A DNA stretch of 64,000 bases from a virus (lineage: Duplodnaviria > Heunggongvirae > Uroviricota > Caudoviricetes): IMG/VR virus record IMGVR_UViG_3300047393_000100. One strand, written 5' to 3'. Positions 1,443 through 59,530 of this stretch are shown here, one piece after another. The notes under the pieces are model-generated. The model was not told the origin of the DNA, made no database searches, and saw nothing but the letters and a program-made list of their open reading frames with translations. A program made the position numbers and the translations under genes. Position 1 is the first letter of the stretch. Every line of letters starts with the position of its first letter.

Positions 1443-2531
1443 ATGTCAATACCTTATAGTGGTTCAATATCCATGGGACAGGTTGCTCGCGAGCAATGTA
1501 AACCATTATTAAATGTAAAAATGCGAGATATATCTTCATTTGCAGGATATGTTATAAAAGATTCAATTTCTGAATTTTATGGATATAATAGAATATATCC
1601 ATCAGTATCTGGTCTTTTTAGTCCCAGTTTAAGCAGTCTTGCAATGACTAAAATATCTGGAATGACAGGAATTTGGGGTACAGGTCAAATAACGTATATT
1701 GGATCAGCTCCTCTTAATTTAACATTAAAATGGTATGGATCAGGACAATCTTCATATCCAGGATCTCCTGAATTATATTCACCATGGGCAAATGCATATG
1801 CAACTCAACTTAATTTAACAACAGGGCAAGCATTTACCCTAATGACCGGTTATATAAATACTGCGGAAACTGCAATAAGCGTAAATGCACAAGGATTTAC
1901 ATGTGGGCAATCGTATCCAGCGATTGCAACAAGTACTCCAGTTGCAGTTCCTCCAACTACTACAACGGAAAATTCATTTGTATTTGATGCAGACTTTATT
2001 GTATTAACTTACCAATTCACAGATGGACAAGATTTGGATATAAAGGTTAGAATGGCTAGTCCAGATATTGGGCAGAATACTGTAGCAAATTATATCGGAT
2101 ATCCGGCTCCGGTTCCTCATACTGATAAATGGCCACAGACAGGTAGACCTATATTATCATGGGGTGGTGATCAAACAGGAATTGGTCTTGAATCCGTTTT
2201 AATAGATGTTGTAGCATTTCAATTAGCGTATCCTACTGCAACAAAAATGATAATAGATTTAAGGGCATCATGGTTTGTTACTAAAGGATTTAATCCTGTC
2301 AGCGTTATAGCCAAAATGTATACTGGAGGTACGATGGCAGTAAATACTAGTACAAGGAATTGGGTATGTACTGGCTATTCAGCTACTTCTACTGTAAATT
2401 CGGTTTCCAAAAGTATAACATCAATGTATACCACTGCAGGCAGTGGTGATAGATTAGCAACATTAACATATGACATCTCAACGGGACTAGGAACATTTAA
2501 CACCAATGATACTACAACACCTACTGTATAA
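1443..2531 (+). CDS. Ser/Thr/Gly-rich protein, paralog family 1 (possible structural or fibre protein)
   Basis: N-terminus MSIPYSGSISMGQ plus an EFYGY motif, shared with 7420..7890 and 7974..8414. Confidence 0.6.
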   Translation: MSIPYSGSISMGQVAREQCKPLLNVKMRDISSFAGYVIKDSISEFYGYNRIYPSVSGLFSPSLSSLAMTKISGMTGIWGTGQITYIGSAPLNLTLKWYGSGQSSYPGSPELYSPWANAYATQLNLTTGQAFTLMTGYINTAETAISVNAQGFTCGQSYPAIATSTPVAVPPTTTTENSFVFDADFIVLTYQFTDGQDLDIKVRMASPDIGQNTVANYIGYPAPVPHTDKWPQTGRPILSWGGDQTGIGLESVLIDVVAFQLAYPTATKMIIDLRASWFVTKGFNPVSVIAKMYTGGTMAVNTSTRNWVCTGYSATSTVNSVSKSITSMYTTAGSGDRLATLTYDISTGLGTFNTNDTTTPTV

Positions 2532-2560
2532 ATTGTTAATAACTTTTATAAAAATAATTA

Positions 2561-2589
2561 GCCAAACATTTTCTTGTTTGGCTTTTTTT
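2561..2589 (+). terminator. Rho-independent terminator
   Basis: Hairpin GCCAAAC-ATTTTCTT-GTTTGGC followed by T7. A near-identical copy sits at 15999-16027. Confidence 0.7.
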
Positions 2590-2592
2590 AGT

Positions 2593-2619
2593 TATATTTA
2601 CATTATAATTAAAAAAACA
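2593..2619 (+). promoter_or_regulatory. conserved phage promoter-like box (TATATTTACATTATAATTAAAA...)
   Basis: One member of a family of at least 18 boxes placed 5-10 nt upstream of start codons. Confidence 0.6.
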
Positions 2620-2627
2620 TAAATAAA

Positions 2628-2942
2628 ATGAACACAGTAGACCAAATTGAAATTGTAAAAGAAGTAGTAAAAAATTATTTTGCAGATAATGCACAATGGT
2701 TAAATTTATCTGAATTATCAGAATCTGAAAAATCGCATATTATTGCCATAGGAACTTCAATTCTTTGCACTAAATGGAAAGTTGGATATGAAGGTGGCGG
2801 ATTTGTACAATCATTTGTTAATAATGATTTAATGGGAGCTATTGGAAGTGCCGATGGTACTTCATATAAAGGTTTTAAATTCTTTGCAAGTTTAATGTAT
2901 AATGTTGGAATGCCTTCAAAATTAACACCAAAATATAATTAA
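2628..2942 (+). CDS. hypothetical protein
   Basis: ORF directly downstream of a promoter box. Confidence 0.5.
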   Translation: MNTVDQIEIVKEVVKNYFADNAQWLNLSELSESEKSHIIAIGTSILCTKWKVGYEGGGFVQSFVNNDLMGAIGSADGTSYKGFKFFASLMYNVGMPSKLTPKYN

Positions 2943-2943
2943 T

Positions 2944-3201
2944 ATGAAAAAAATAATAGTAATTCTAGCAATTGTTCTAATGATTACGTCATGTAAAAAA
3001 GAGCATGAAACAACTGGAGTGTACATCACACCCGCCCGGGCAAAAGAAATCCAATATGATGTTAAATTTCTTTTTGAAAAAGATGGTATTAAAATATATC
3101 GTTTTTATAATGAAGGTAGATACCATTATTTCACAACAAATGGCGAAACAATGACTTCACAGGTATCTAATAAAACATCATATGAGGACAATATTCAGTA
3201 A
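2944..3201 (+). CDS. putative lipoprotein
   Basis: Signal peptide with lipobox ...MITSC. Confidence 0.5.
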   Translation: MKKIIVILAIVLMITSCKKEHETTGVYITPARAKEIQYDVKFLFEKDGIKIYRFYNEGRYHYFTTNGETMTSQVSNKTSYEDNIQ

Positions 3202-3242
3202 AAATAAATCACATAAAGTTTTTTTATGTTAGATAAAAGGTT

Positions 3243-3275
3243 TATATTTACATATCAAATTAAAACAAAGAACTT
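3243..3275 (+). promoter_or_regulatory. promoter-like box variant
   Basis: TATATTTACATATCAAATTAAAACAAAG immediately upstream of the ATG at 3276. Confidence 0.5.
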
Positions 3276-3431
3276 ATGGTAATTTATACAGTAATCCCAT
3301 TCTATTTCGATGGAATTGAAATCTTTCAAAATGATGTTGCAAGTTTTGAAAATTACGATGATGCATATTATTTTGCAACAAACCATTTAGATGGAAGAAG
3401 ATTTGAAATTATTGAAAACTTTTTAAAATAA
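3276..3431 (+). CDS. small hypothetical protein (paralog of 58141..58296)
   Basis: MVIYTVIPFYFDGIEIF...IIENFLK has the same length and clear similarity to MTIYTVIPFFSDGIEIF...IIENELN. Too short to appear in the ORF track. Confidence 0.5.
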   Translation: MVIYTVIPFYFDGIEIFQNDVASFENYDDAYYFATNHLDGRRFEIIENFLK

Positions 3432-3437
3432 AAAATT

Positions 3438-5140: not shown

Positions 5141-5536
5141 ATGAATAATAATTTGATGACAAGAGAAGAGATGGATGCTTTCTTAGAAAGTATCGGAGGC
5201 TTAAACAATGGTTATTTTACTGACAGGCCACCTATTAAGAGTCGAGGTTTCTTTTCAGTTTCTGACGGTTGGTTAGGAATTATTAAGAGATTGATTGAAG
5301 ATCTTATAGAACTTGGATGGAACAAAGAAATTTGTCAAGTCAAAGAAAAGTTCGGTGGCCTTAGATTTTATATCAATAGCGGAAGCGAAGAGATTTGGCA
5401 ACGTATTAGATTAGCTGAAGATGCTTCGTATATTACGTGTGAAAAATGCGGTGAATTAGGTCAAATCAGAGGAAATGGCTGGATTTCAACATTATGTGAT
5501 GAACATAGTGGAGGCAAGAAAATTCTAGAAATTTAA
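5141..5536 (+). CDS. hypothetical protein with C-terminal zinc ribbon
   Basis: CEKCG...CDEH. Confidence 0.45.
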   Translation: MNNNLMTREEMDAFLESIGGLNNGYFTDRPPIKSRGFFSVSDGWLGIIKRLIEDLIELGWNKEICQVKEKFGGLRFYINSGSEEIWQRIRLAEDASYITCEKCGELGQIRGNGWISTLCDEHSGGKKILEI

Positions 5537-5574
5537 GATAGTTTCGAATATATAATTCTAAAAGGAATTTTATT

Positions 5575-6360
5575 ATGAAAGCATCTTTATTAAATATTAA
5601 AACATCGCCATTAGATGAAAGGGACATTATTATAGAAACAATAATTAGTCCAAATCTACAAATACAATCTGACTTAGATTATAGAAAAGATATGCCAGAA
5701 GTATGGGACCAAGGAGAAGATGGTCCCTGTTCTAGTTTTGCAGCTGCTGCAATTAAAGCATGGCAGGAGAAGATGAATTATGGACTAAATGAGGAACTTT
5801 CACAATATTTTATATACAATATAAGACCCGATAAATCAATCAAGGGAATTAACCCAAGGATTACCATGCGACTATTACAATCATGGGGAATACCTCGCAA
5901 GAAAATTTATAACAATAGACCAATATCTGACGTTAACAAATTATCTAAAGAGATATTAGATGATGCAAAAAATCATAGAATACTTGGGTATGCTGCAGTA
6001 AATACAATAGACGGTTTAAAGGGTTCTTTAATTAAAAATGGTCCAGCATATATTGCAATGCCAGTTTATAATGAAAGCGATACATTTTGGAAAGGTGGCA
6101 AGGGAGATAAAATGTTAGGTGGACATGCGTTAGTAGTGGTAGGTTATAATAAGATTGGATTTATTATAAGAAATTCATGGGGTTCTAATTGGAATGGAGA
6201 TGGACACACAATATATCCTTACACTGAGTTTGGAATGCACCTAGAAATTTGGACATCAATTGACGATACAACATCAACTCGGCAAGTTCCTTCAACTACA
6301 CCGAAACCAGAAAGAAAGGGTATTGCAGGATTGTTTAAAAGGATATTTGGTAAAAATTAA
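5575..6360 (+). CDS. papain-like cysteine peptidase (C1 family)
   Basis: Catalytic Cys motif GPCSSFAAAA; His/Asn region GGHALVVVGY...NSWGSNWNGDG. Confidence 0.7.
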   Translation: MKASLLNIKTSPLDERDIIIETIISPNLQIQSDLDYRKDMPEVWDQGEDGPCSSFAAAAIKAWQEKMNYGLNEELSQYFIYNIRPDKSIKGINPRITMRLLQSWGIPRKKIYNNRPISDVNKLSKEILDDAKNHRILGYAAVNTIDGLKGSLIKNGPAYIAMPVYNESDTFWKGGKGDKMLGGHALVVVGYNKIGFIIRNSWGSNWNGDGHTIYPYTEFGMHLEIWTSIDDTTSTRQVPSTTPKPERKGIAGLFKRIFGKN

Positions 6361-6404
6361 CAAAAAATTAACACTTATTTTTTTCAAGTATTAAATATTA
6401 TAGT

Positions 6405-6437
6405 TATATTTACATATCTAATTTAAACAAATAAAAT
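6405..6437 (+). promoter_or_regulatory. promoter-like box
   Basis: TATATTTACATATCTAATTTAAACAAATAAAATC upstream of the ATG at 6439. Confidence 0.5.
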
Positions 6438-6438
6438 C

Positions 6439-7383
6439 ATGAAAAAATTATTATTATTATCTGCAATTATATTATTAATGTCATGTGATCCTGGAGAAAT
6501 TCAAGTAGATCCTAAACCTACTCCTCCAATCGTATCAGATGCTCCATTAGCACCAGATCCTATAATCGATACGCCAGTTCCTACTATAAATCTTTCAAAT
6601 TTACCAGAATGGACATTGATTCCAGACCAAAAATTTGAGAATGCATTAATTGCACAGGGAATTGACGATATTTCCGATGGAAGGGTATTAACCAGTAAGA
6701 TATCAACATTGAAAGTATTAAAGGTTGAACACGCTGGAGTAACTAATACTACTGGTCTTGAGAATTTCTTAAGTTTAGAATTTCTTTCTCTATGGGATAA
6801 TCCAATAACTTCAATAGATCTTACACATAATGTTCTGTTACAAATACTAGGATTAAGCGAAACATATCTGGAAACCGTGGATTTATCTAAAAATACAGAA
6901 TTATATAGCGCAGAATTTCAAGGAAATAGTGATAAAAATGAAGATCCAAACTATCCATGGGGTAAAACTAGAGGATTTACATCATTGGATTTTAGTCATA
7001 ATCTTAAACTTCAAAGAATTTATGTAATGTGCAATAGATTAACATCGCTAAATGTTAGAATGTTACCTAAACTAACTGATTTATGGATAGGATGTTCATA
7101 TACAGGACGCACTGGAGGAAATTATATTAAAACAATAGATCTTACTGGTAATCCACGCCTTGGAACATTCATAGTGGCAGGAGGAACCTTTGAATATATT
7201 GATGCCAGAAACGCAAATAGCTCAGGTAATATAATGGTTAATGTTGTCCTTAAAAATAATCCAGATCTAACAAAGGTTAGAGTTACAAATTTAGCGTTAA
7301 TTAAATCTGTTAATGCAATGACTAGACCTGAAGGTCAAAGAGAACCATGGTATTTTGATGCACATACTATTTTATTTGAATAA
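6439..7383 (+). CDS. lipoprotein with leucine-rich-repeat-like segments
   Basis: Signal plus lipobox LLMSC. Repeated LxxLxLxxN-like units. Confidence 0.5.
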   Translation: MKKLLLLSAIILLMSCDPGEIQVDPKPTPPIVSDAPLAPDPIIDTPVPTINLSNLPEWTLIPDQKFENALIAQGIDDISDGRVLTSKISTLKVLKVEHAGVTNTTGLENFLSLEFLSLWDNPITSIDLTHNVLLQILGLSETYLETVDLSKNTELYSAEFQGNSDKNEDPNYPWGKTRGFTSLDFSHNLKLQRIYVMCNRLTSLNVRMLPKLTDLWIGCSYTGRTGGNYIKTIDLTGNPRLGTFIVAGGTFEYIDARNANSSGNIMVNVVLKNNPDLTKVRVTNLALIKSVNAMTRPEGQREPWYFDAHTILFE

Positions 7384-7419
7384 ATAAAGATATATAATAA
7401 ATAAATAAAGATTAATAAA

Positions 7420-7890
7420 ATGGGATTACCATATAGCGGCCAAATATCGATGGGAAATATAAATACTGAGCTCGGAAGAGCAAGTAATACTCCTAATACG
7501 AGATTGGCAGGTGGATTAACTCCGACAATATCTTCTCTATTTGGATTGGCAGATTCAACAATAAATAAAGTAGCTCCTCATCGTATTTCAGAATTTTACG
7601 GTTATTCAAGGGATTATATATCATTCAGTGGATTATATTCAATTGGATATAATGGAAGCGTCAATGGAACTGTTACTGTATCTGGGGGTCCACATAATTT
7701 TTCAGCAGGCGCAACTCAATTCGGAGGAGGAACAACGACTGCGAATATCGTAGTAAACGGTATATCTAGAAGCCGTACTCAAGCTGGAAATGGAACATCA
7801 TATTCAACAACCTTTCAATTAGGAGAAGGAGTATATTCATATTCATTAAGCGTATCTTTGACTGGTAGTGGTAGTGGTTTTATAAATTAA
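7420..7890 (+). CDS. Ser/Thr/Gly-rich protein, paralog family 1
   Basis: MGLPYSGQISMGN.. and SEFYGY, shared with 1443 and 7974. Confidence 0.55.
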   Translation: MGLPYSGQISMGNINTELGRASNTPNTRLAGGLTPTISSLFGLADSTINKVAPHRISEFYGYSRDYISFSGLYSIGYNGSVNGTVTVSGGPHNFSAGATQFGGGTTTANIVVNGISRSRTQAGNGTSYSTTFQLGEGVYSYSLSVSLTGSGSGFIN

Positions 7891-7973
7891 AATATTTCTT
7901 AAAAATATAATATATCTATTAATATGAATGATATGTTAGACTAAATTAGATATATAAAAAAAAAAATAATAAT

Positions 7974-8414
7974 ATGAGTTTAGTATATAGTGGGGCAATT
8001 TCTTTAGGACAAATTAATACAGAAATGGGAGGACCTGGAACTAATAAAAGTTTAACTTCTAATTCGGTCAATGCAGGAAAGGCGCCAGACCATGGCATCC
8101 GAGAATTTTATGGTTATACCCGAAAATACGTATCCTTTAGTTCATTATATTCTATAGGATATAACGGTAGCGCAAGTGGAACTGTTACAATAACGGGAGC
8201 AGCTAATTTTTCAGCAGCAGCACTAAAAACAAATACAGGTGGTATAAATGTTTCAATAACTGTTGGAGGAATTACCAGAACTGCATCGAGGTCTACTGCA
8301 GGAACTACATTTTCTACTACATTTCAACGAGGAACGGGTACATACGCATATTCGTTGAGTGTAAGTTCATTAGTCGGCTCTGGCTCTGGATACATAGACG
8401 TTGTAATGGTTTAA
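7974..8414 (+). CDS. Ser/Thr/Gly-rich protein, paralog family 1
   Basis: MSLVYSGAISLGQ.. and REFYGY. Confidence 0.55.
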   Translation: MSLVYSGAISLGQINTEMGGPGTNKSLTSNSVNAGKAPDHGIREFYGYTRKYVSFSSLYSIGYNGSASGTVTITGAANFSAAALKTNTGGINVSITVGGITRTASRSTAGTTFSTTFQRGTGTYAYSLSVSSLVGSGSGYIDVVMV

Positions 8415-8451
8415 TTTTAAAATATTTTATTAATTCTAAAAAATTCATTAA

Positions 8452-9411
8452 ATGAATATTAAAGGAATTCATGTGTTTAAGGGAGTAAGTGAAAAATCTT
8501 ACTCCGAACACATCTTATTGATTCAAACACTTTCTGCCCTAGAGTGGAAGAAAAATGGACCAATACATTTATATACTACAGAAAAGGATTTAATCTTTTT
8601 CAAAAAAATGGGCATGGATGTTTTATATGATAATATAAATACTGATGTTCTTGAAGAGCCAGACGATATATATTGGCCACACTTCGGTGCTGCTACTAAA
8701 ATGAAGGTTCTTAATTCCATTCAAGAATTTCCAGTTGCATTTATAGATAATGATTTAATTTATAAGGATAAATTAGATGAGTCTATTTTAAATTATGATA
8801 TAACCTATTTGCATGATGAAGGCAGATTTTGGAGAAATTATCCAGATGTGTCTTTATTGGGTAAAAGAAAGGATTATCAATTTCCAAATATTCCGGAACT
8901 TAATACATGTAATCCCATTAATGTTGGATTCTTTATTATAAATAATAAAGAACTTAAAGAAAGATATTGCAAACTAGCATTAGATTTCATGACTAAAAAT
9001 AATAGTTTATCTGCTCCTGTTAAATGGGCAAATCCTGACCTAAGAAAGTTTTGGAAACCATTATTTGCAGAACAACGATTATTATCTGCAGTCGTCGATA
9101 ATGGAGGATTTACAAGAAACCAATTATTTCCATATACATATTATGGAGATACTTGTAATTGGACGCATATTAAAGAAAATGTTAGAATTACCAGCGATAA
9201 TTTATATAAAAAGGAAAAGTTTACATGGTTTCATTTATGGGGAGAAAAGGTGGCATACAAAAAGCCAGCATTTAAACCTCTTAAAGTTATAATGTTTTAT
9301 CAATTATTGAATGAATTATTTAATAGAAAAGACCAAAGAATCACACAAATTGCATGGAATATTTTGGATTGGTTAAAGAAATCAAATTCATCTAATGAAT
9401 ATAATATATGA
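8452..9411 (+). CDS. putative nucleotide-sugar transferase-like protein, paralog family 2
   Basis: Clear paralog of 10995..11966 (..NGPI.LYT...DxLYDxINTxxL..) and more distantly of 10129..10998. Confidence 0.55.
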   Translation: MNIKGIHVFKGVSEKSYSEHILLIQTLSALEWKKNGPIHLYTTEKDLIFFKKMGMDVLYDNINTDVLEEPDDIYWPHFGAATKMKVLNSIQEFPVAFIDNDLIYKDKLDESILNYDITYLHDEGRFWRNYPDVSLLGKRKDYQFPNIPELNTCNPINVGFFIINNKELKERYCKLALDFMTKNNSLSAPVKWANPDLRKFWKPLFAEQRLLSAVVDNGGFTRNQLFPYTYYGDTCNWTHIKENVRITSDNLYKKEKFTWFHLWGEKVAYKKPAFKPLKVIMFYQLLNELFNRKDQRITQIAWNILDWLKKSNSSNEYNI

Positions 9412-12741: not shown

Positions 12742-12742
12742 T

Positions 12743-15063: not shown

Positions 15064-15065
15064 TT

Positions 15066-15968: not shown

Positions 15969-15998
15969 ATTGTTAATAACTTTCTTTGAAAATAAGTA

Positions 15999-16027
15999 GC
16001 CAAACATTTTTTTGTTTGGCTTTTTTT
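15999..16027 (+). terminator. Rho-independent terminator
   Basis: GCCAAAC-ATTTTTTT-GTTTGGC plus T7; duplicate of 2561-2589. Confidence 0.7.
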
Positions 16028-16030
16028 GTT

Positions 16031-16057
16031 TAGATTTACATTATAATTAAAACAAAT
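16031..16057 (+). promoter_or_regulatory. promoter-like box
   Basis: TAGATTTACATTATAATTAAAACAAAT. Confidence 0.55.
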
Positions 16058-16070
16058 AAAAAACACCATT

Positions 16071-16475: not shown

Positions 16476-16582
16476 TTAATCTATAAGAATTGAAACAAAA
16501 AATCACAAGTGCAATATAACTTAAGTCTTTAAGCCTGAGGGTAAAATCATTAATCCCGGGAAACTTTTTAAATCTATAAATT

Positions 16583-17562: not shown

Positions 17563-17613
17563 AATTGTTAATAACTTTTTGCAAATAAGTTTTCACGGGT
17601 CAAATTTAATAGC

Positions 17614-17640
17614 TATATTTACATTATAATTAAAACAAAT
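17614..17640 (+). promoter_or_regulatory. promoter-like box
   Basis: TATATTTACATTATAATTAAAACAAAT, preceded by the long repeat from 17566. Confidence 0.6.
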
Positions 17641-17645
17641 ATCAT

Positions 17646-20093: not shown

Positions 20094-20459
20094 ATGGAAT
20101 CAATATTAGATAAAAAGATAGATTTTAAGGATGCGATTGATTCAATTAAAAGAGTACTTGGAATCTTATTTCCATGGGTTAGTCTTTTTAAAAGTATTAA
20201 AAATGAAACGTTTTATTCAAACACATTATATGATATTAAACAGGGGCATCCTGTTATAATTAGATCTGAAAAGATAATGTCTCAATATGAAAAAATGTAT
20301 GGCAGAATAGATTCGCAATTCGCATTAGATACTGTTAAGATGGGAATTAAGCGTGAAATCTGTGATGAAATCATGAGAAGTGATTTATTTGAATGGCAAA
20401 TCGAAGGTACTACAATGGGAACCAAAGTTGCTGCAAGAATAATTATTAATAAGTTTTAA
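20094..20459 (+). CDS. hypothetical protein
   Basis: ORF. Confidence 0.45.
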   Translation: MESILDKKIDFKDAIDSIKRVLGILFPWVSLFKSIKNETFYSNTLYDIKQGHPVIIRSEKIMSQYEKMYGRIDSQFALDTVKMGIKREICDEIMRSDLFEWQIEGTTMGTKVAARIIINKF

Positions 20460-20499
20460 AAATAAGTATTAAAACATTTTTTATATCGAAACTTTTAGT

Positions 20500-20530
20500 T
20501 ATATTTACATATAAATTAAAACAAACATAC
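20500..20530 (+). promoter_or_regulatory. promoter-like box
   Basis: TATATTTACATATAAATTAAAACAAACATACA. Confidence 0.55.
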
Positions 20531-20531
20531 A

Positions 20532-24458: not shown

Positions 24459-24471
24459 CATAAAATTAACA

Positions 24472-24499
24472 CTCGGGATTTTCTAGTCTCGAGTTTTTT
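24472..24499 (+). terminator. Rho-independent terminator
   Basis: ACTCGGGA-TTTTCTAG-TCTCGAGT followed by a T-run. Confidence 0.55.
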
Positions 24500-24502
24500 G
24501 TT

Positions 24503-24533
24503 TATATTTACATTATAATTAAAACAATAACAA
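24503..24533 (+). promoter_or_regulatory. promoter-like box
   Basis: TATATTTACATTATAATTAAAACAATAACAA. Confidence 0.6.
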
Positions 24534-26951: not shown

Positions 26952-27013
26952 AATTGTTAATAACTTTTTGAAAAGAATTCACTAAAAGTTTTCAATATAT
27001 CGAATATTATAGT

Positions 27014-27045
27014 TATATTTACATTATAATTAAAACAAACAAAAT
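27014..27045 (+). promoter_or_regulatory. promoter-like box
   Basis: Consensus box preceded by the long repeat from 26954. Confidence 0.6.
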
Positions 27046-27267: not shown

Positions 27268-27299
27268 ATAATTCACAATATAATTAAAAACAAACATAT

Positions 27300-29620: not shown

Positions 29621-29893
29621 ATGAAAGATAAATTAGGACTTATAAATTACGAAGGAGATTGCCTTAAAGTAATCAAAGGTTACAACACATTGATTGTTAA
29701 AGACCAATACGGAAAGGTAGCATTAGAAACAGATGTCAAAGGATTATATGATTTCATTGATGGTACATCAAATATTATAGATAGCAAAGGAAAAGAATGG
29801 GATTTTTTGAAAGAACACAAAGATGCTAAACCATCTCTTTTTAAAATACATGAATTCCTTAAGGATTTTAATATTAAAATTTGCAAATGTTAA
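29621..29893 (+). CDS. hypothetical protein
   Basis: ORF. Confidence 0.4.
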   Translation: MKDKLGLINYEGDCLKVIKGYNTLIVKDQYGKVALETDVKGLYDFIDGTSNIIDSKGKEWDFLKEHKDAKPSLFKIHEFLKDFNIKICKC

Positions 29894-29934
29894 TATCTTT
29901 TAGAAATAAAGGTTAAAATACAAATAATTAAAAC

Positions 29935-31283: not shown

Positions 31284-31333
31284 ATTGTTAATAACTTTAT
31301 AAAGATAAGTTTTTACAATTCAAATATTATAGT

Positions 31334-31365
31334 TATATTTACATTATAATTAAAACAACATATTA
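31334..31365 (+). promoter_or_regulatory. promoter-like box
   Basis: Consensus box; long repeat from 31285. Confidence 0.6.
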
Positions 31366-32457: not shown

Positions 32458-32479
32458 GGTCCCTATAGGGACCTTTTTT
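32458..32479 (+). terminator. Rho-independent terminator
   Basis: Palindrome GGTCCCTATAGGGACC followed by T6. Confidence 0.65.
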
Positions 32480-32538
32480 CTGTTAATAACTTTTTGAAAA
32501 CATGTGTAAATAAATTTTCATGGTTCAAATATTATAGT

Positions 32539-32570
32539 TATATTTACATTATAATTAAAACAAACAAATT
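32539..32570 (+). promoter_or_regulatory. promoter-like box
   Basis: Consensus box. Confidence 0.6.
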
Positions 32571-34110: not shown

Positions 34111-34137
34111 AAAGTTTCAATTTAAAACCAAACAAAC

Positions 34138-36384: not shown

Positions 36385-36525
36385 TGTGGATAGGAATTGG
36401 AATAATAATTATTGCGCTATTAGTATGGTCATGGCTTTTTTACGAGATAAAGAATGCACCTGAAATCGATGAAAATGGTAATATAATCACCAAGAAAAAA
36501 GATAAAAATTAACAAAACTTTAACA

Positions 36526-36553
36526 CCTGAGATTATTTAGTCTCAGGTTTTTT
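36526..36553 (+). terminator. Rho-independent terminator
   Basis: CCTGAGA-TTATTTAG-TCTCAGG followed by T6. Confidence 0.65.
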
Positions 36554-36556
36554 GTT

Positions 36557-36585
36557 TATATTTACATTATAATTAAAACAAACAA
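36557..36585 (+). promoter_or_regulatory. promoter-like box
   Basis: Consensus box. Confidence 0.6.
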
Positions 36586-36903: not shown

Positions 36904-37466
36904 TGAATTGCCTGATAGTTATAGCGCATCCAGATCGTACGTCCTTTGAGAATACAAAACTCATAAAGACTTTGAAAATGCGATATACAAAGGATGGACA
37001 TAAGGTAAATATAGTTGATCTTTATCTTGATGATTATAATCCATCTTCATTTGTTGGAGATCTTTCAAATATTAATGATAACGCATTTGCAAAATCATAT
37101 AGACATTTAATAAAAACGTCAAACCATATTTGGATTATTTCACCAACAAGATGGTTATCAATGTCTCCTTTAGTCGAAGGATTTATTGACCAGGTATTTA
37201 TCAGTGGGTTTGCATTTAAGGACGGTAGAGGACTTCTAGGTGATAGAAAACTTGGAGTAGTATTAACATCTACTTCACCTAATAATGTAAGATGGAAGAC
37301 CTTAGATATAATGTGGGTAAGACTTAAGTTAATGGTATTTCCTCAAGTATTTAAGTTTAAAAACATTAAAATATATCAAATTTGGAATGTTAAAAAATCT
37401 ACAAACCTAGAACTCAATACACACCTACAGAGAATAAATCAAATTGTTAATAACTTTTTGAAATAA
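36903..37466 (+). CDS. flavodoxin-like NAD(P)H-dependent oxidoreductase (MdaB/NQO-like)
   Basis: N-terminal LIVIAHPDRTSFENTKL resembles the flavodoxin-like quinone reductase family. The C-terminus runs into the IVNNFLK repeat. Confidence 0.45.
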   Translation: MNCLIVIAHPDRTSFENTKLIKTLKMRYTKDGHKVNIVDLYLDDYNPSSFVGDLSNINDNAFAKSYRHLIKTSNHIWIISPTRWLSMSPLVEGFIDQVFISGFAFKDGRGLLGDRKLGVVLTSTSPNNVRWKTLDIMWVRLKLMVFPQVFKFKNIKIYQIWNVKKSTNLELNTHLQRINQIVNNFLK

Positions 37467-37492
37467 ATGTTTCACAGTTCAAATATTATAGT

Positions 37493-37524
37493 TATATTTA
37501 CATTATAATTAAAACAAACAAATT
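37493..37524 (+). promoter_or_regulatory. promoter-like box
   Basis: Consensus box; long repeat from 37444. Confidence 0.6.
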
Positions 37525-46121: not shown

Positions 46122-46151
46122 TAGCAATAAACACTTAAAAACAAACAAATT

Positions 46152-49535: not shown

Positions 49536-49570
49536 ATTTATATAATAATCAATAACTAAAATTTTAAATT

Positions 49571-50258: not shown

Positions 50259-50362
50259 GAGAAATGTTATATTTTTAAGGATATTTATCCACTACTAGGG
50301 CATCTTTTTGATCATTTTTGAAAATAAATAGAAAAAAGTTTTCACGGGTCAAAAACTTTAGT

Positions 50363-50397
50363 TATATTTACATTATAATTAAAACAAACAAATAAAA
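50363..50397 (+). promoter_or_regulatory. promoter-like box
   Basis: Consensus box upstream of a 27-aa membrane ORF at 50399. Confidence 0.55.
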
Positions 50398-50485
50398 GAT
50401 GGATTTAGGTACAAGTATAATGATGTCAGTTATGTTCATATGTTGGGCAGCTGTAATGATCGCAATTATTAAAAATAGGTAGAAC

Positions 50486-51522: not shown

Positions 51523-51747
51523 ATGACACTAAAGGATAAATTTGAACAATGGTTCATCAATGACGAAGAAGAACACTATGAAGGTATGGTAGAAACAGTT
51601 GCCATTGAACATGAAAAGGTAGCAGACGAGTTTGCTATTGATTTTGCAGAGTGGTGTGTTAAAAATGAATTATTTTACGCAATACAATATGGTCGTATTG
51701 AAACAAAGGAACTATTAAAAATCTATAAAAAAGAGAAAGGATTATGA
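51523..51747 (+). CDS. 74-aa protein, paralog of 34965..35189
   Basis: High identity; the same ATGA overlap with the next gene. Confidence 0.55.
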   Translation: MTLKDKFEQWFINDEEEHYEGMVETVAIEHEKVADEFAIDFAEWCVKNELFYAIQYGRIETKELLKIYKKEKGL

Positions 51748-52313
51748 AAGTAATATTCCTAGATAACGATGGTGTTATCTGTCTCCTTAATAATTGGGGA
51801 GGTCGGCAAAAGAAATGGGCCAAATACAGATCTGCCAATCCAGAAAGTAGTCTATTTTTAAAAGATGCTCCTGTTGAGATAAGATTTGATGATTTTGATA
51901 AAAAGGCAATTAAGGTACTTAATCAGATCCTAGAAGAGACTGGTGCTGAAATTGTTGTAAGTTCTGATTGGAAATTGCATGCAACATTAGAGGAACTTGG
52001 AGATTACTATGAAGCACAAGGGATTATTAAACGTCCAATTGCAATTACTCCAAATCTACATGAATTCGATCCAGAAACAAATGACATGTTTATGTGGAAA
52101 AGATGGTTAGAACGTAAAAGAATTCTCGAGATTGAAAGATATTTAATGACCACTCCCTGTATAGATCAATGGGTTGCAGTTGACGATTTAAACATGAGTC
52201 CTGGAGCAAATGGAGGAATTGGACTTGCAAATTTTGTCTTGACTCCTCGAAGTGCTGAAGGAATCAAGCAATGTAACATTAAAGATGAAATTGTTAATAA
52301 CTTTTTAGAATAA
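51744..52313 (+). CDS. HAD-superfamily phosphatase-like protein
   Basis: Motif I FLDNDGV; paralog of 53304..53789. Confidence 0.55.
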   Translation: MKVIFLDNDGVICLLNNWGGRQKKWAKYRSANPESSLFLKDAPVEIRFDDFDKKAIKVLNQILEETGAEIVVSSDWKLHATLEELGDYYEAQGIIKRPIAITPNLHEFDPETNDMFMWKRWLERKRILEIERYLMTTPCIDQWVAVDDLNMSPGANGGIGLANFVLTPRSAEGIKQCNIKDEIVNNFLE

Positions 52314-52339
52314 ATGTTTCATGGTTCAAATATTATAGT

Positions 52340-52374
52340 TATATTTACATTATAATTAAAACAAACAAATACAC
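52340..52374 (+). promoter_or_regulatory. promoter-like box
   Basis: Consensus box; long repeat from 52291. Confidence 0.6.
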
Positions 52375-53304: not shown

Positions 53305-53789
53305 TGAAAGTTATATTTTTAGATTTCGATGGAGTTCTTAATGTAATCTCCCAAGGTCATGATGGCTTTGGGGGAATATTCCATCCTGAATTTGTAGAAA
53401 ATCTTAAACATATCTTAGATGAAACATGTGCAAAATTAGTTATTAGTTCTTCTTGGCGTCACATGGGACTTGAGAAATTAAATATGATGTGGGAACATCG
53501 AGGTTATCCTGGAGAAATTATTGGAATTACACCGGATCTTTGGAGAAATGTTGTAGGTGAAGACTTCCATGAAAAAATGCAAAGAGGTCATGAAATTCAA
53601 GCAATCTTAGATCAAAAACCCGAAATAATTAATTACGTTATTCTTGACGACGACGACGATATGTTACCTACTCAACGAGGAAATTTTGTAATGTGTTCTA
53701 ATAATATCAATCATCCAGATTGTATTGATATAGGATATGGTTTAACTAAAGAATGTACAAATAAAGCAATAAGAATTTTAAATTGTTAA
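53304..53789 (+). CDS. HAD-superfamily phosphatase-like protein
   Basis: Motif I FLDFDGVLN, motif II SSSWR, C-terminal DDDDD. Confidence 0.55.
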   Translation: MKVIFLDFDGVLNVISQGHDGFGGIFHPEFVENLKHILDETCAKLVISSSWRHMGLEKLNMMWEHRGYPGEIIGITPDLWRNVVGEDFHEKMQRGHEIQAILDQKPEIINYVILDDDDDMLPTQRGNFVMCSNNINHPDCIDIGYGLTKECTNKAIRILNC

Positions 53790-53831
53790 TAACTTTTTGA
53801 AATAAATGTTTCCCATGTCAAATATAATAGT

Positions 53832-53863
53832 TATATTTACATTATAATTAAAACAAACAATAT
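53832..53863 (+). promoter_or_regulatory. promoter-like box
   Basis: Consensus box. Confidence 0.6.
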
Positions 53864-54190: not shown

Positions 54191-54799
54191 ATGATAAACA
54201 ACCTAGAAATAATCAAACCTCTCTTAAACTTTGAAAGCAAAGGAGACTTTTATATGCTATATGTGCTTAAACGTAAGAAAGATCAACCTGAAGATGAACG
54301 AGATAATCATCAATCAGTAAGAACTATTAAGACCTATTGTATTGAGAGTATTGAACACCTAGAACGCAGGTGGAGTGAAATACAGGACCTGTGTGAGATG
54401 TTTAAGGCTCGAGCATATATTCATGTTCAAAAACAAAATCACCGTGATGTGTCACTTAATATGATGGTTGCACTGGCACAAAGAATCCAGGATGGTAACC
54501 CAAATCAAAAGGGTTTATTTGATTCTGTAGTTGGTCAAATCAAAACACACGAAAAGAGATGGATTGTAGATATTGATACTAAAGATGAACAATTTGATAG
54601 AGAAGTTCAATTATTTATTAATACTAAATGTAGACCCTTTGGCGCGAAAATTATTGCTAACATCAGAACTAAAAATGGAAATCATTTAATCACAGAAAGA
54701 TTTGATGTTAAAACTTTTAGTGAAAAATTTCCTGAGATAGACATTCAACGTAAAAATCCAACACTTTTATATTATCCAAATAGCTTAGAAGATTGTTAA
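54191..54799 (+). CDS. hypothetical protein
   Basis: ORF. Confidence 0.45.
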   Translation: MINNLEIIKPLLNFESKGDFYMLYVLKRKKDQPEDERDNHQSVRTIKTYCIESIEHLERRWSEIQDLCEMFKARAYIHVQKQNHRDVSLNMMVALAQRIQDGNPNQKGLFDSVVGQIKTHEKRWIVDIDTKDEQFDREVQLFINTKCRPFGAKIIANIRTKNGNHLITERFDVKTFSEKFPEIDIQRKNPTLLYYPNSLEDC

Positions 54800-54841
54800 T
54801 AACTTTTTGAAATAAATGTTTCATGTTTCAAATATTATAGT

Positions 54842-54873
54842 TATATTTACATTATAATTAAAACAAATACATT
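54842..54873 (+). promoter_or_regulatory. promoter-like box
   Basis: Consensus box. Confidence 0.6.
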
Positions 54874-56952: not shown

Positions 56953-57234
56953 ATGGAATTACCAACAGATTATACAAAGCTAAAACCTAAACAGAGAAGA
57001 GAGGTTAGAGAACAATACATAAAGGATCAAAATAATAAATGTATGCATTGTGATGAAGAGTTAGATAAACAACCACCTTTAAACATATTAAATAAATCAA
57101 TAAATTGGAGATTATTTCCAATTGGGTTTTTACAAAATCCTATTCATCTCCAACATTGCCATAAAACAAATATGACTGAAGGCGCAATACACGCTTACTG
57201 TAATGCAGTTTTATGGCAATATGAAGGTAGATAA
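56953..57234 (+). CDS. endonuclease VII-like (HNH-type) small nuclease candidate
   Basis: CMHCDEEL ... HLQHCHKTNMTEGAIHAYCN resembles the C..C / HCH..G..RG..C.CN signature of T4 endo VII. Confidence 0.4.
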   Translation: MELPTDYTKLKPKQRREVREQYIKDQNNKCMHCDEELDKQPPLNILNKSINWRLFPIGFLQNPIHLQHCHKTNMTEGAIHAYCNAVLWQYEGR

Positions 57235-57240
57235 TAAAAG

Positions 57241-57440
57241 AAGAACCTGCTACATAACACGGCGCCAAATTAATTGTGACATGTACTATCTGGAAGGTCA
57301 GGTCAGGTTCTTTAGATTTACCAATGCTCGCTGTTAATTGAGAGGTAGAGGGTATTAATTTCCGAACAAGGGTTAATAGTAGGAAGACGCCACTCATTGC
57401 ACTCAATCAGTAACCCTGCTCTTGTTCTTCTAATGTGAGA
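57241..57440 (+). ncRNA. conserved structured non-coding element, copy B
   Basis: 9-bp stem AAGAACCTG..CAGGTTCTT. The segment 57345-57417 aligns to 347-470 with a compensated stem (GGGTTA..TAACCC). Upstream parts also align to 160-267. Confidence 0.35.
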
Positions 57441-57482
57441 AATCCTGTTAGTTAATAAGAAAGACCAAGGTTGGTAAATTTT

Positions 57483-57573
57483 AATCGGTTGGTGTAAGAT
57501 CTGGAGTTCTAGACGATGGTAACATGGGCGGCCTGGCGCTGCTATGATAAGGGTTCGAATCCCTTACCGATTT
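57483..57573 (+). tRNA. type II-length tRNA-like gene, identity unresolved
   Basis: Perfect 7-bp acceptor AATCGGT/ACCGATT and T-arm AAGGG-TTCGAAT-CCCTT. I could not find a canonical anticodon arm among the 91 nt. Confidence 0.35.
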
Positions 57574-57612
57574 CAAATAATTAGATTGAACACAATTATT
57601 GACACGGCTCTG

Positions 57613-57679
57613 CAGAGCTAGGAGAGGTTTGGTTAGCTCTGTACAGTACAAGCACGAGGTTCGAATCCTCGCTCTCCAC
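57613..57679 (+). ncRNA. tRNA-like 3' domain, homolog of 40746-40789
   Basis: 8-bp hairpin CAGAGCTA..TAGCTCTG whose loop contains GGAGAG. Then T-arm CGAGG-TTCGAAT-CCTCG and 3' acceptor strand CTCTCCA, the same acceptor sequence as the permuted element at 40782. Confidence 0.3.
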
Positions 57680-57979
57680 TAAAAACTACTTGAGTAGGTG
57701 GGAGTGGTCAATCAACAACTCACCGAAGTTTCAGGTAAAAACTATATAGAAACGGGATGGCCGAGCCCATATAGGTAAGTAGGAAGTTAGTGTTTTTTTA
57801 GGAGGATTGGATTAGTTTTTAACATTAACGAAAGGAGTCAAGTAATATGTAATGGCAAAGTTGGTTATGTCATCCTGTAAAAAAGGTTATATCGTCGCAA
57901 GTTCGAGTCCTGCCTTGACCACGCTAATTAAACTAGTTTATGAACAGTCTTTGAGGTGAGATGCCTTCATTAGAACGGA

Positions 57980-58045
57980 AGTCAGGTGAAAGTAGGCTAA
58001 GACGAATTAAGTTTCGCGTTGCAGGTTCGATTCCTGTCCTGACTA
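57980..58045 (+). ncRNA. short tRNA-like element (66 nt)
   Basis: Perfect acceptor AGTCAGG/CCTGACT and T-arm GCAGG-TTCGATT-CCTGT, but too short for a D-arm plus anticodon arm. Confidence 0.3.
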
Positions 58046-58108
58046 CAAATTGTTAACAACTTTTTGAAAATAATTGCTTAAAGATTTTCATGGTTCAAAG
58101 TTTATAGT

Positions 58109-58140
58109 TATATTTACATTATAATTAAACAAACAATATT
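58109..58140 (+). promoter_or_regulatory. promoter-like box
   Basis: Consensus box; long repeat from 58050. Confidence 0.6.
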
Positions 58141-58296
58141 ATGACAATTTACACTGTTATCCCATTCTTTTCTGATGGTATCGAAATCTTTGCGAACGAT
58201 GTTAAAAGCTTCTCCACGTTTGATGCTGCCTACTTCTATGCTACAAACCACTGCTCTGGAAAAACATTTGACATAATTGAAAACGAATTAAACTAA
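58141..58296 (+). CDS. small protein, paralog of 3276..3431
   Basis: MTIYTVIPFFSDGIEIFANDV...IIENELN. Confidence 0.5.
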   Translation: MTIYTVIPFFSDGIEIFANDVKSFSTFDAAYFYATNHCSGKTFDIIENELN

Positions 58297-58300
58297 AAAT

Positions 58301-59236
58301 ATGAATTGTAATTATAGAATATTAAAGGACGTACATATCGGACAAAGAGTTCGTAAAACAAAGGACAAAACTACAGTTCCTTTTAAAAATGACCCGATGA
58401 CGGACGTAAAAATCATGAATTGGAACCAATTAGGTTTTCAACTAAGTCACCCTGATTTACCAAAAGATATTTGGGTTGATTTCCATCAATTACCATTAGA
58501 CACTATCCAGTTAGAATATGGAGTTATTAAGAATCCAATCACGTTTGTAGAGCAGGTAATGGTAGGCGGTTCGATGGTACTGGTTAGAGCAGATACTCTA
58601 GATTATATGGAGATGATAATTGACAAAAAAGACAAAGAAGATGCTACATTACATGGTGTTAGGGAATTGACACCCGGTGATAGGGTAATCAGTGCAATAT
58701 GTAAACATGGAAATGTGATGGTATACTTAGGTACATTCAATATTGCAACTTATGCATATTCTAGAAGCTATTCATATAATTACAGAAGTAATGGTGTAAT
58801 AGTCTATTACGTTAATGAAACTCCTGAAAGAGCCTTCTTTGCATACGAAGACCCTGATGGAACATACAATATTAAATCATATCCTATTCAAAACAAAATA
58901 GTCAAAGAAAATTATTTAGCATCTGATAAAGATAAAGGAGATAAAGTTGACCCTCAATTTATTGACGAGTCTAAGAACTTACAAATGATCTTGGATTTTG
59001 CGCTGTCCAGAGGATATGAAGCAAAACATTCCGATGAAAAAATAGATGAAGTTAAAAAACAATACTCTAAAATGAAATATGGCGAATATGACCCTATCTG
59101 TTTCATGCAAAAGGGTAAAACCAACATTAGAGAAAATGCAGTTAATTTTGTATTGGAAGGTAATTTAATGGAAACAACCCATGTTTATTTAAATAAACAA
59201 GATGCACACATTGCATATGACAATTTGAGAAGATAA
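58301..59236 (+). CDS. hypothetical protein
   Basis: ORF. Confidence 0.5.
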   Translation: MNCNYRILKDVHIGQRVRKTKDKTTVPFKNDPMTDVKIMNWNQLGFQLSHPDLPKDIWVDFHQLPLDTIQLEYGVIKNPITFVEQVMVGGSMVLVRADTLDYMEMIIDKKDKEDATLHGVRELTPGDRVISAICKHGNVMVYLGTFNIATYAYSRSYSYNYRSNGVIVYYVNETPERAFFAYEDPDGTYNIKSYPIQNKIVKENYLASDKDKGDKVDPQFIDESKNLQMILDFALSRGYEAKHSDEKIDEVKKQYSKMKYGEYDPICFMQKGKTNIRENAVNFVLEGNLMETTHVYLNKQDAHIAYDNLRR

Positions 59237-59294
59237 ATCGATATTAACTTTTAAAATAATTGCTTAAAGATTTTCACATGTCAGGTTTTTTGTC

Positions 59295-59326
59295 TATATT
59301 TACACTATAATTAAACAAACAATATT
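59295..59326 (+). promoter_or_regulatory. promoter-like box variant
   Basis: TATATTTACACTATAATTAAACAAACAATATT upstream of a 46-aa ORF (59327..59466). Confidence 0.5.
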
Positions 59327-59530
59327 ATGAAAATGGATTGGAAAAAGATGGGATTTAAAACTGAAAAAGAGTACAATCAATTCTTAGAAGAAAAATGGCA
59401 ATCTTTAAAAAAGAAATTAGAAGAGCCTGAAATTAAAGCAGTATTTGAAAGATTAGCAGACAGATAAATTACAGGTGAAACATATATTGAAACCAATATA
59501 TAAATCATATAAAACTTAACATAAATTGGA

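Follow-up and report, generated by a model that had tools for sequence, protein, structure and literature searches.

What is the function of a long and almost invariant box that stands in front of 18 start codons within one stretch of phage DNA? The stretch, which comprises 64,000 nucleotides of the Caudoviricetes record IMGVR_UViG_3300047393_000100 of IMG/VR and is called the window here at its whole length, was found to contain TATATTTACATTATAATTAAAAC(AAACAA) in 18 intergenic copies, all of them on the plus strand. A preliminary description had read the box as a phage-specific transcription signal, served for example by a phage RNA polymerase or sigma factor, or as an anti-termination or translation-initiation element. 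With a probability of about two in three, judged from sequence comparison, the copies are compact expression cassettes for early and accessory gene blocks that would be read by the Bacteroidetes-type RNA polymerase of the host, and their best reading, by analogy, is that of a promoter and leader family of the promoter-early stem-loop (PeSL) type adapted to the Bacteroidetes grammar. The transcription signal of the preliminary description is kept in this reading, as is the translation-initiation element, which was borne out as a leader anchored to the ATG. The anti-termination reading found no support, and the length and conservation of the box do not need a phage polymerase or sigma factor, as its 5′ end shows a sigma-A geometry and the remainder reads as an ATG-anchored leader.

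The repetition of the box at the 18 starts was confirmed by the counts. The 29-mer TATATTTACATTATAATTAAAACAAACAA gave 12 matches with up to three mismatches, all on the plus strand, against 0.00 expected (dinucleotide-preserving shuffles gave none), the 19-nt box core gave 17 matches, likewise all plus, against 0.44 expected, and the exact 23-mer was present in 11 of the 18 copies, where chance predicts 0. Every one of the 18 listed starts was found to have TATATTTACA or a sequence close to it; a subtype with CATATCWAAT / CATATAAAT was found at 3243, 6405 and 20500, and the boxes at 16031, 2593, 58109 and 59295 were found to differ by one to three changes. Every copy was intergenic and had the same direction as the genes, which are essentially all on the plus strand in the window. 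The ATG stands most often at box start +32, with a range of 29-40, and thus about 3 nt past the 29-mer, so that the proximity to start codons held and the gap of 5-10 nt in the preliminary description did not. Of the first genes behind the boxes, those that were scanned were mostly without functional annotation, the others coding for DNA ligase, phosphoribosyl pyrophosphate (PRPP) synthetase and Fpg/Nei, and the protein scans of the window agreed with the proposal that the genes served by the box are co-regulated and for the most part small, and either unknown or accessory.

The 5′ half of the box was found to resemble a host promoter. The -7 element of Flavobacterium johnsoniae contains T-12 A-11 H H T-8 T-7 T-6 G-5 (TAHHTTTG) with the start site 4-5 nt downstream, and its promoters have an AT-rich spacer, likewise AT-rich -18 and -28 regions and a weak -33 motif (PMC6847099); the consensus of the primary sigma factor of Bacteroidetes (sigma-ABfr) is TTTG / TAnnTTTG, also in B. 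thetaiotaomicron (PMC7366714). In the window, TATATTTA fits each specified position of the F. johnsoniae -7 element save the final G, with TATATTT in 17 of the 18 copies and TAGATTT at 16031. The tetranucleotide TTTC was present at -23 to -20 from the box start in about 15 of the 18 copies, whether or not a hairpin was present, which gives the arrangement TTTC-N19-TATATTTA with a C at the -33 site where the G of TTTG is expected, the TTTG/TTG of host promoters standing about 19-21 nt upstream. The copies share with Bacteroidetes sigma-A promoters T-12, A-11, the lack of G at -10/-9, T-8 T-7 T-6, a T-rich candidate -33 element 19 nt upstream of the -7 element, the AT-rich spacer and a predicted leader of about 20 nt, which lies in the usual range; they differ in the A-5 and the C ending the -33 element, each in place of G, and in flanks that are far more conserved than those of host promoters. 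The base at -5 was A in all 18 window copies and in all copies of the isolate immuto described below, and G in 2 of 9 copies of the isolate MA9V-1. In the plus-strand intergenic DNA of the window, TAHHTTTG was found once against 23 occurrences of TAHHTTTA.

Two other promoter assignments were rejected. Matches to sigma-70-type promoters were not enriched in the window (131 against 126 expected), and if TATAAT were the -10 element, the leader would shrink to about 9 nt and the conserved A-tract would fall outside the mRNA, in conflict with the ATG-anchoring seen in immuto. As a separate observation, the sole canonical TAHHTTTG of the plus-strand intergenic DNA (TATATTTG, 44305-44312) is located 54 nt before the M42 peptidase gene and adjoins a 115-aa open reading frame (ORF) on the minus strand (43951-44298), which is among the few plausible minus-strand genes of the window.

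The 3′ half of the box behaves as a leader. In immuto, ATAATTAAAAC lies 5 nt further from the -7 element than in the window with the distance to the ATG unchanged (9-10 nt); it tracks the ATG and not the -7 element, and the two halves of the box are therefore separate signals. The consensus leader, with the ATG at box start +32, was found to contain AAAA at -14 to -11, C at -6 and A at -3 and no Shine-Dalgarno sequence. Among 17 box genes, A was present at 82-94% at positions -14 to -11 and at 59% at -3; the non-box genes of the window, which also have no Shine-Dalgarno sequence, contained A at 61-66% at -13 to -11 and at 71% at -3. For Flavobacterium, the literature names A-3, A-12 and A-13 as bases that favour initiation (Baez et al. 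2019, PMC6847099). The box leader shares with such Bacteroidetes initiation regions the A-rich -14 to -11 segment, A-3, the absence of a Shine-Dalgarno sequence and minimal structure, and differs in having C at -6, where A is favoured, and in being a fixed sequence instead of a merely A-rich one (PMC6847099). From -20 to +20 the box genes are almost free of predicted structure: their mean folding energy was -0.44 kcal/mol, while other gene starts reached -1.36 and random 40-mers -3.38. Leader-only copies without the promoter core were found inside operons before internal genes, at 27272, 29894, 34111 and 46122. A leader hairpin (AUAAUU...AAUUAU) was considered and rejected, since its 3′ arm varies between copies.

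Homologous cassettes were found in two cultured phages. Flavobacterium phage vB_FspM_immuto (MW353176) contains 19 same-strand cassettes of the form AGTTGC-N19-20-TAT(A/C)TTTAGGTATCAATAATTAAAAC-N10-ATG, or in full ...CTTTTTGAAAAATAA...AGTTGC-N19-20-TAT(A/C)TTTAG(G/A)TATCAATAATTAAAAC-N10-ATG, with a canonical TTG at the offset where the window has TTC. Chryseobacterium phage MA9V-1 (OR050627), a 213-kb isolate, contains TTTTCATATGTCG..TA(A/T)ATTT(A/G)..ACTATAATTAAAAC, and in 2 of its 9 cassettes the canonical TATATTTG is present exactly at the position of TATATTTA in the window. Both sets have the layout of the window and in part its sequence, with CTTTTTGAAAATAA upstream, the -33 element at equal offset and TA(T/A)ATTT(A/G), followed by the presence of (A/C)TATAATTAAAAC or AATAATTAAAAC about 10 nt before the ATG, and both are numerous and entirely on the coding strand; those of MA9V-1 differ in having G and A mixed at -5. 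No description of the cassettes was found in the papers searched, which dealt with immuto, MA9V-1 and the boreal Flavobacterium jumbophages.

Among uncultured phages, the exact 23-mer was found in 103 IMG/VR stretches from about 60 contigs, whose proteins are typically 65-80% identical to those of the window. Three of these contigs have a length of 234-236 kb, and in them the exact boxes lie within a few tens of kb, together with one or a few distal sites; the signal is therefore class-specific and not genome-wide, and the "genome-wide" family of the preliminary description becomes a regional one. In nine orthologous cassette pairs TATATTTA was 100% identical and the next 15 nt 94%, with 70% identity in the spacer and 84-86% in the flanking coding sequence. 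From these comparisons the cassette family appears to be common to a lineage of large Flavobacteriaceae phages, with a diverged form in immuto and MA9V-1.

Outside phages, the exact 23-mer was found once in the chromosome of a metagenome-assembled genome of Formosa sp. (Flavobacteriaceae; L113 3273-3295, JABHDE010000003.1), where a lipoprotein gene has its ATG 8 nt further on and the neighbours are ordinary host genes, including a formyltetrahydrofolate deformylase-like ORF; no further similarity to phage was found at this locus. The occurrence could be due to chance, convergence or the capture of a phage cassette, and as an anecdote only it is consistent with a sequence that works in a host context. 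The scan of bacterial genomes also gave one match in Christensenella, without similarity to phage and probably due to chance.

Upstream of the box, an AT-rich repeat of about 50 bp had been described at 11 copies, and 10 of the 11 starts were recovered within 1 nt, the copy at 15970 having a 3-nt insertion. With up to three mismatches, TTGTTAATAACTTTTTGAAA gave 11 matches in the window, all plus, against 0.09 expected; one of these, at 29887 and not among the listed starts, belongs to a decayed copy without the promoter core. The repeat is positioned at about -61 to -37, and two spacing classes, of 49 nt and of 59-61 nt, were found, one helical turn apart. Its T-tract and A-tract are in register with the UP-element consensus of E. 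coli, and the -61 to -37 region could offer an UP-like contact. The recurrent C-termini IVNNFLK and IVNNFLE, noted in the preliminary description, were confirmed in the ORFs 36903-37466 (...IVNNFLK*) and 51744-52313 (...IVNNFLE*), and they arise because the repeat TTGTTAATAACTTTTTGAAATAA has stop codons in three frames; two more genes were found to end at the TAA within TTGTTAA.

Strong hairpins followed by a T-run were found at 2560-2583, 15998-16021, about 24480, 32458-32473 and about 36535, and a weak one at about 3215, with none in the other 12 copies. A G+C-rich hairpin stands directly before the box at four cassettes (2593, 16031, 24503 and 36557), and that at 32458 is further upstream. 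The terminator hairpin directly before the box thus held at these four places and not as a wider feature, and the terminator stem-loop is optional within the cassettes. A further observation concerns a direct repeat, WTTAACA-N4-WTTAACA, with an 11-bp period just upstream of terminator hairpins (6366-6385, 24467-24486 and 36520-36540), which was also found in many IMG/VR loci (e.g. L088) and, in a distal cassette of wide conservation, after TTGTTAATAAC; the repeat may bind a protein or be no more than AT filler rich in stops.

The composite layout is the one known from PeSL cassettes of the T4-type phages RB49/phi1, T4/PST and KVP40/nt-1, in which a stop codon in AT-rich DNA is followed by a host-type early promoter, a stem-loop, a translation signal and a start codon, and which are concentrated before ORFans and mark points of exchange (Arbiol et al. 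2010, PMC2839356; Comeau et al. 2014, PMC4122927). The box cassettes share with PeSLs the nature of a repeated composite intergenic motif with AT-rich stop, predicted host-type promoter, optional stem-loop, translation signal and ATG, in this order, the location in plastic regions ahead of ORFans and auxiliary genes, and copies that bracket indels between related phages, which points to homologous recombination; the hairpins of immuto lie between the promoter elements, as in some PeSL subclasses. They differ in using the Bacteroidetes -33/-7 elements (TTTC-N19-TATATTTA) where PeSLs use sigma-70 -35/-10 elements, in having an A-rich leader without Shine-Dalgarno sequence as the translation signal, in having a G+C-rich hairpin in only about one third of the window copies, and in a longer and more invariant core (the exact 23-mer in about 60 contigs). 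The box phages also appear not to be Tevenvirinae: in immuto, the nearest isolate, T4-like head genes (gp20/gp23-like) were annotated together with a family A polymerase and DnaB as replication genes, and the window itself is without structural genes. PeSLs are characterised in addition by promoter and terminator activity and by mini-circles, the box cassettes here by their sequence.

Indels were compared between the window and a 72-kb relative (IMGVR_UViG_3300045539_000120). Where the window has the cassettes at 52340 and 53832, the relative has only one, flanked on the left like the former and on the right like the latter; two genes and one cassette are therefore an indel bracketed by copies. 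A second clean two-gene indel was found to be bracketed likewise by the cassettes at 58109 and 59295. A 73-aa ORFan (27046-27267), absent from the relative, lies between a cassette and a duplicated leader before NAMPT (a gene named from BLAST matches to annotated phage NAMPT genes), and the relative has a full cassette directly upstream of its NAMPT homologue. Across all relatives, gene pairs were still adjacent in 18 of 91 cases when a cassette lay between them (20%) and in 218 of 592 elsewhere (37%), with an odds ratio of 0.42 and a nominal p of 0.0013 that is only indicative because the loci are related and non-independent. Lineage-specific variants were found to be common to paralogous copies within one genome (L100 and immuto), a sign of homogenisation. 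Recombination between copies is real; the alternative of a transposing repeat in the preliminary description was rejected. Apart from the cassettes, a mosaic junction was observed in IMGVR_UViG_3300025896_000115 (L016), which is 99.6% identical to window positions 149-1764 and loses this similarity sharply within the tRNA cluster, with the boundary at 149; the junction is located in the tRNA array and not at a cassette.

The search for a phage transcription factor was extended from the window to its relatives. No RNA polymerase (T7-like single-subunit, phiKZ/AR9-like multisubunit or crAss-like) and no sigma factor was found among about 50 scanned proteins of the window, the largest ORF of which has 521 aa, and a sigma-family hidden Markov model (HMM) gave no match in any of the six frames; in the whole immuto genome, neither an RNA polymerase nor a sigma factor is annotated, and the sigma HMM gave none. 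A search with E. coli RpoE detected a sigma factor of the extracytoplasmic function (ECF) type, with 198-204 aa, in 14 box-bearing loci (L003, L016, L034, L035, L042, L053, L055, L065, L067, L082, L084, L086, L089 and L095). It contains Pfam Sigma70_r2 and Sigma70_r4_2 above the cut-offs, occurs in at least two sequence variants, and is encoded in each case 35-46 nt behind a box or a close box variant; in L016 (reverse strand) it is located about 7.1 kb to the left of the window start. When the ECF sigmas were combined into a profile, it gave no match in the window or in the whole of immuto. The suggested check for a phage sigma factor or polymerase thus yielded an ECF sigma in relatives, outside the window, and not one that appears to read the box.

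A second motif, GAAAC-N15-TATATAA, gave 8 matches in the window, where 0.2 were expected, and 7 of the matches are on the plus strand (25573-25599, 30616-30642, 33443-33469, 40228-40254, 49519-49545, 59477-59503 and 63633-63661). In the relatives its strand ratio was 33:0 in favour of the box strand, with some copies before tRNA genes in L016, L035 and L063, and immuto contained 0 copies. The sequence ATATATAAW alone was not enriched in the window (16 against 13.6 expected), enrichment being confined to the bipartite motif. This motif fits the geometry of ECF promoters, for which a -35 AAC core, a spacer of about 15-17 nt and a short -10 element are typical, and is probably a promoter class of middle or late genes. 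In the box cassette AAC is missing at -35, the sole AAC being at -51 or further upstream. The position of the sigma gene behind a box, its co-occurrence with the other motif and the absence of both from immuto argue that the ECF sigma does not read the box.

From these elements the following mechanism is proposed. The AT-rich stretch TTGTTAATAAC TTTTTGAAA TAA, with stops in all three frames, would close any upstream gene. It is followed by a G+C-rich terminator hairpin with T-run or, where no hairpin is present, by TTTTCAnGGTTCAAATATTATAGT, and in both cases TTTC would come to stand at the -33 site. After a 19-nt AT-rich spacer, TATATTTA would serve as the -7 element, with a predicted start 4-5 nt further on, at the A of cATT|ATAATT (box position 13). 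The resulting leader of about 20 nt, AUAAUUAAAACAAACAAAUU, would be free of a Shine-Dalgarno sequence and essentially unstructured, with AAAA at -14 to -11 and A at -3, which is a recipe for strong initiation in Bacteroidetes. The box seems to be one long invariant block because -7 element, start region and leader adjoin one another directly and because the copies are homogenised by recombination, and homologous recombination between cassettes would insert or delete the gene modules that lie between two copies. In the predicted cascade, the host polymerase would read the boxes, one box would drive the ECF sigma, and the sigma would probably switch on GAAAC-N15-TATATAA. Boxes, ECF sigma and second motif would together outline a two-tier programme in large Bacteroidetes phages, the transcription of which is little known.

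Several points weigh against this reading. The G-5 that is "nearly invariant" in host promoters is replaced by A in all 18 copies and the G of the -33 element by C, so that these bases leave some room for a phage-assisted or phage-specific reading, and the comparison was made with the F. johnsoniae consensus. Positions +1 to +11 are more invariant across phages than an A-rich leader would need by itself, and the "early" timing is deduced from gene content and from the sigma gene behind a box. In a cruder breakpoint test than that of gene adjacency, blastn high-scoring segment pairs (HSPs) were found to span 16% of cassettes and 22% of ordinary junctions; the HSP ends did not discriminate, and this test was replaced by the one of gene adjacency.

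The alternative that survives best, and has an outside chance of being correct, is a host RNA polymerase redirected by a phage factor, in the manner of the sigma appropriation by MotA/AsiA of T4 or through a modified sigma-A, so that A-5, C-33, TTTTCA and the start region would form a middle-class code. It would account for the A found in all 18 copies at the place of the nearly invariant G, for TTTTCA, which both the window family and MA9V-1 keep as their -33 sequence, and for a 23-mer far more conserved over about 60 contigs than the coding sequence. The deviations are not obligatory, however, since immuto has the canonical TTG at -33 and MA9V-1 has G-5 in some copies; no other candidate early class was seen, with one canonical -7 element in the intergenic DNA of the window, the sigma gene is itself box-dependent, which better fits a first-tier class, and no candidate activator was identified. 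A related and likewise doubtful proposal is that A-5, C-33, the fixed start region and ATAATTAAAAC, kept across Flavobacterium and Chryseobacterium phages, mark "phage" promoters or mRNAs for a dedicated phage factor. If true, such a factor, either redirecting the polymerase or acting as a global regulator of translation or RNA stability, would switch the whole class as a unit, and would be the Bacteroidetes analogue of sigma appropriation or of RegA-type control.

It is improbable that the ATAATTAAAAC half is mainly an operator or RNA target of a phage shut-off regulator, such as a RegA-like repressor as in T4, an endoribonuclease site or a repressor binding at +1 to +12. The half is identical in the window family and immuto and reads ACTATAATTAAAAC in MA9V-1, which exceeds the need for A-richness, and its position relative to the ATG is fixed. 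The looser TTTAAA/TTAAAA at -15 to -10 of non-box genes suggests instead a general initiation signal, no candidate regulator was identified, and such a role would be compatible with a host-read cassette and not exclusive of it.

Slightly less probable still is the recognition of the box by the ECF sigma of the relatives, with positive autoregulation as in many ECF systems. The presence of the sigma in 14 box-bearing loci, its position directly behind a box or close variant in each, and its location about 7 kb to the left of the window in L016, the locus 99.6% identical to window 149-1764, would agree with this. The box, however, has no -35 AAC at the correct spacing, and GAAAC-N15-TATATAA, which fits the geometry, is present wherever the sigma family was found and strictly on the coding strand; moreover, immuto has 19 box-type cassettes with neither sigma nor second motif, and autoregulation alone cannot start expression. 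That the repeats are remnants of a mobile element without regulatory role (related to miniature inverted-repeat transposable elements or linked to a homing endonuclease) is very unlikely in spite of the high copy number, the bracketed indels and an HNH endonuclease gene at 839-1417, as all copies are intergenic, on the coding strand and at a fixed distance from the ATG (mode 32 nt; range 29-40), the copies inspected showed no terminal inverted repeats or target duplications, the internal layout fits a promoter and initiation grammar, and the -7 core and leader are kept while the spacer drifts.

The expression-cassette reading overturns no current understanding. The cassettes are of a known kind, most likely a Bacteroidetes counterpart of PeSLs, and they suggest that PeSL-type gene shuffling is apparently not confined to the T4-like phages of Proteobacteria. 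Immuto, with Flavobacterium sp. LMO8 as host, and MA9V-1, with Chryseobacterium indologenes MA9, are culturable systems with homologous cassettes, and the cassette is a candidate strong promoter and leader for Flavobacteriia, where expression tools are scarce.

The individual cassettes are all on the plus strand. Cassette 1 (2533..2627) was found to contain TTGTTAATAAC at 2533, followed by the terminator hairpin (2560-2583) with T-run, the box at 2593-2621 and the ATG at 2628. Cassette 2 (3202..3275) contained the variant box TATATTTACATATCAAATTAAAAC at 3243, with the weak A/T hairpin upstream (~3215) and the ATG at 3276, and cassette 3 (6361..6438) contained the direct repeat ATTAACA-N4-ATTAACA and TTTTTC at -25 to -20, followed by a variant box at 6405 and the ATG at 6439. 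In cassette 4 (15970..16070), TTGTTAATAAC was followed by the terminator hairpin 15998-16021 with T-run, the box at 16031 (TAGATTTACA...) and the ATG at 16071. Cassette 5 (17565..17645) contained the upstream repeat with 49-nt spacing and GTTTTC, followed by the exact 23-mer box at 17614 and the ATG at 17646. Cassette 6 (20443..20531) has a degenerate upstream repeat (TTATTAATAAG) and a variant box at 20500, and the ATG at 20532 belongs to a ribose-phosphate pyrophosphokinase gene. Cassette 7 (24459..24533) contained ATTAACA-N4-ATTAACA and the terminator hairpin CTCGGGA..TCTCGAG (~24480) with T-run, followed by the exact box at 24503 and the ATG at 24534 of an Fpg/Nei-like glycosylase gene.

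Cassette 8 (26954..27045) contained the upstream repeat with 60-nt spacing, the exact box at 27014 and the ATG at 27046 of the 73-aa ORFan, behind which the leader-only partial copy CACAATATAATTAAAAACAAACATAT (27268..27299, leader at 27272) precedes NAMPT. The decayed cassette (29887..29934) contained the upstream-repeat remnant ATGTTAATATCTTTTAGAAA and the leader AATAATTAAAAC (29894) and no -7 core. Cassette 9 (31285..31365) has the upstream repeat (49), the exact box at 31334 and the ATG at 31366, and cassette 10 (32458..32570) has the hairpin GGTCCCTATAGGGACC (32458-32473) with T6, followed by the CTGTTAATAAC repeat (59), the exact box at 32539 and the ATG at 32571. The leader-only copy TTTAAAACCAAACAAAC (34111..34137) precedes the ATG at 34138. 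Cassette 11 (36513..36585) contained ATTAACA-N4-TTTAACA and the terminator hairpin CCTGAGA..TCTCAGG (~36535) with T-run, followed by the exact box at 36557 and the ATG at 36586. In cassette 12 (37444..37524) the upstream repeat forms the last codons (IVNNFLK*) of 36903-37466, followed by the exact box at 37493 and the ATG at 37525 of the ATP-dependent DNA ligase gene.

Another leader-only copy, CTTAAAAACAAACAAATT (46122..46151), precedes the ATG at 46152. Cassette 13 (50311..50398) contained TTTTTGAAAATAA..GTTTTCACGGGTCAAA, the exact box at 50363 and the ATG at 50399 of a short peptide ORF. Cassette 14 (52291..52374), the repeat of which forms the IVNNFLE* end of 51744-52313, has the exact box at 52340 and the ATG at 52375 and is the left border of the first two-gene indel, the right border of which is cassette 15 (53783..53863) with the exact box at 53832 and the ATG at 53864. 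Cassette 16 (54793..54873) contained the upstream repeat (49), the exact 23-mer box at 54842 and the ATG at 54874. Cassette 17 (58050..58140) begins with the TTGTTAACAAC repeat (59) directly after a tRNA-like 3′ end, followed by the box at 58109 (two changes) and the ATG at 58141, and is the left border of the second two-gene indel; its right border is cassette 18 (59237..59326), with the box at 59295 (TATATTTACACTATAATTAAAC) and the ATG at 59327.

The window has a G+C content of about 31% and was found to contain eight tRNA genes and densely packed small ORFans and auxiliary genes. The annotated genes include ribose-phosphate pyrophosphokinase, NAMPT, NADAR, a macro-like domain, ATP-dependent DNA ligase, thymidylate synthase, Thg1, a CCA-adding/poly(A) polymerase-like enzyme, Fpg/Nei, M42 peptidase, an amidase and the HNH endonuclease (839-1417), and the cassette region includes genes of NAD salvage, nucleotide metabolism and tRNA repair. 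A near-identity search of GenBank phages with window positions 1-25000 found none; the nearest GenBank phage, vB_FspM_immuto, aligned with 15% of an 8-kb probe at 69% identity, and for several proteins the identity was 55-85%.

A preprint on Flavobacterium jumbophages with sizes near 235 and 390 kb describes NAMPT islands and sigma genes and leaves promoters unmentioned (bioRxiv 10.64898/2026.04.22.720137). In the window, a set of genes for NAD salvage and ADP-ribose was observed at 20532-23261, 27300-28865 and 62604-63011, consisting of the pyrophosphokinase, a weak macro-domain match, NADAR, NAMPT and a CTP_transf_like nucleotidyltransferase, and it resembles the "NAD-salvage islands" of those jumbophages (bioRxiv 10.64898/2026.04.22.720137). 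An 11-kb block (5506-16491), missing from the 72-kb relative and located between conserved genes, has the cassettes at 6405 and 16031 near its ends; it encodes a papain-like protease, a radical-SAM protein (14017-15063) and several proteins of about 250-320 aa without family match, and may be a biosynthetic or modification module.

Four tRNA-like units with T-arms such as GGTTCGAATCC were observed at 57480-58047, ending directly at cassette 17. The Rfam search gave only tRNAs in the window and nothing credible at 57200-58150, and ARAGORN gave one tRNA call (57483-57574), only with intron search or a relaxed threshold and with conflicting anticodons. The units may be degenerate or unusual tRNAs, and 57901-58148 was found to be conserved at 92% in the 72-kb relative.

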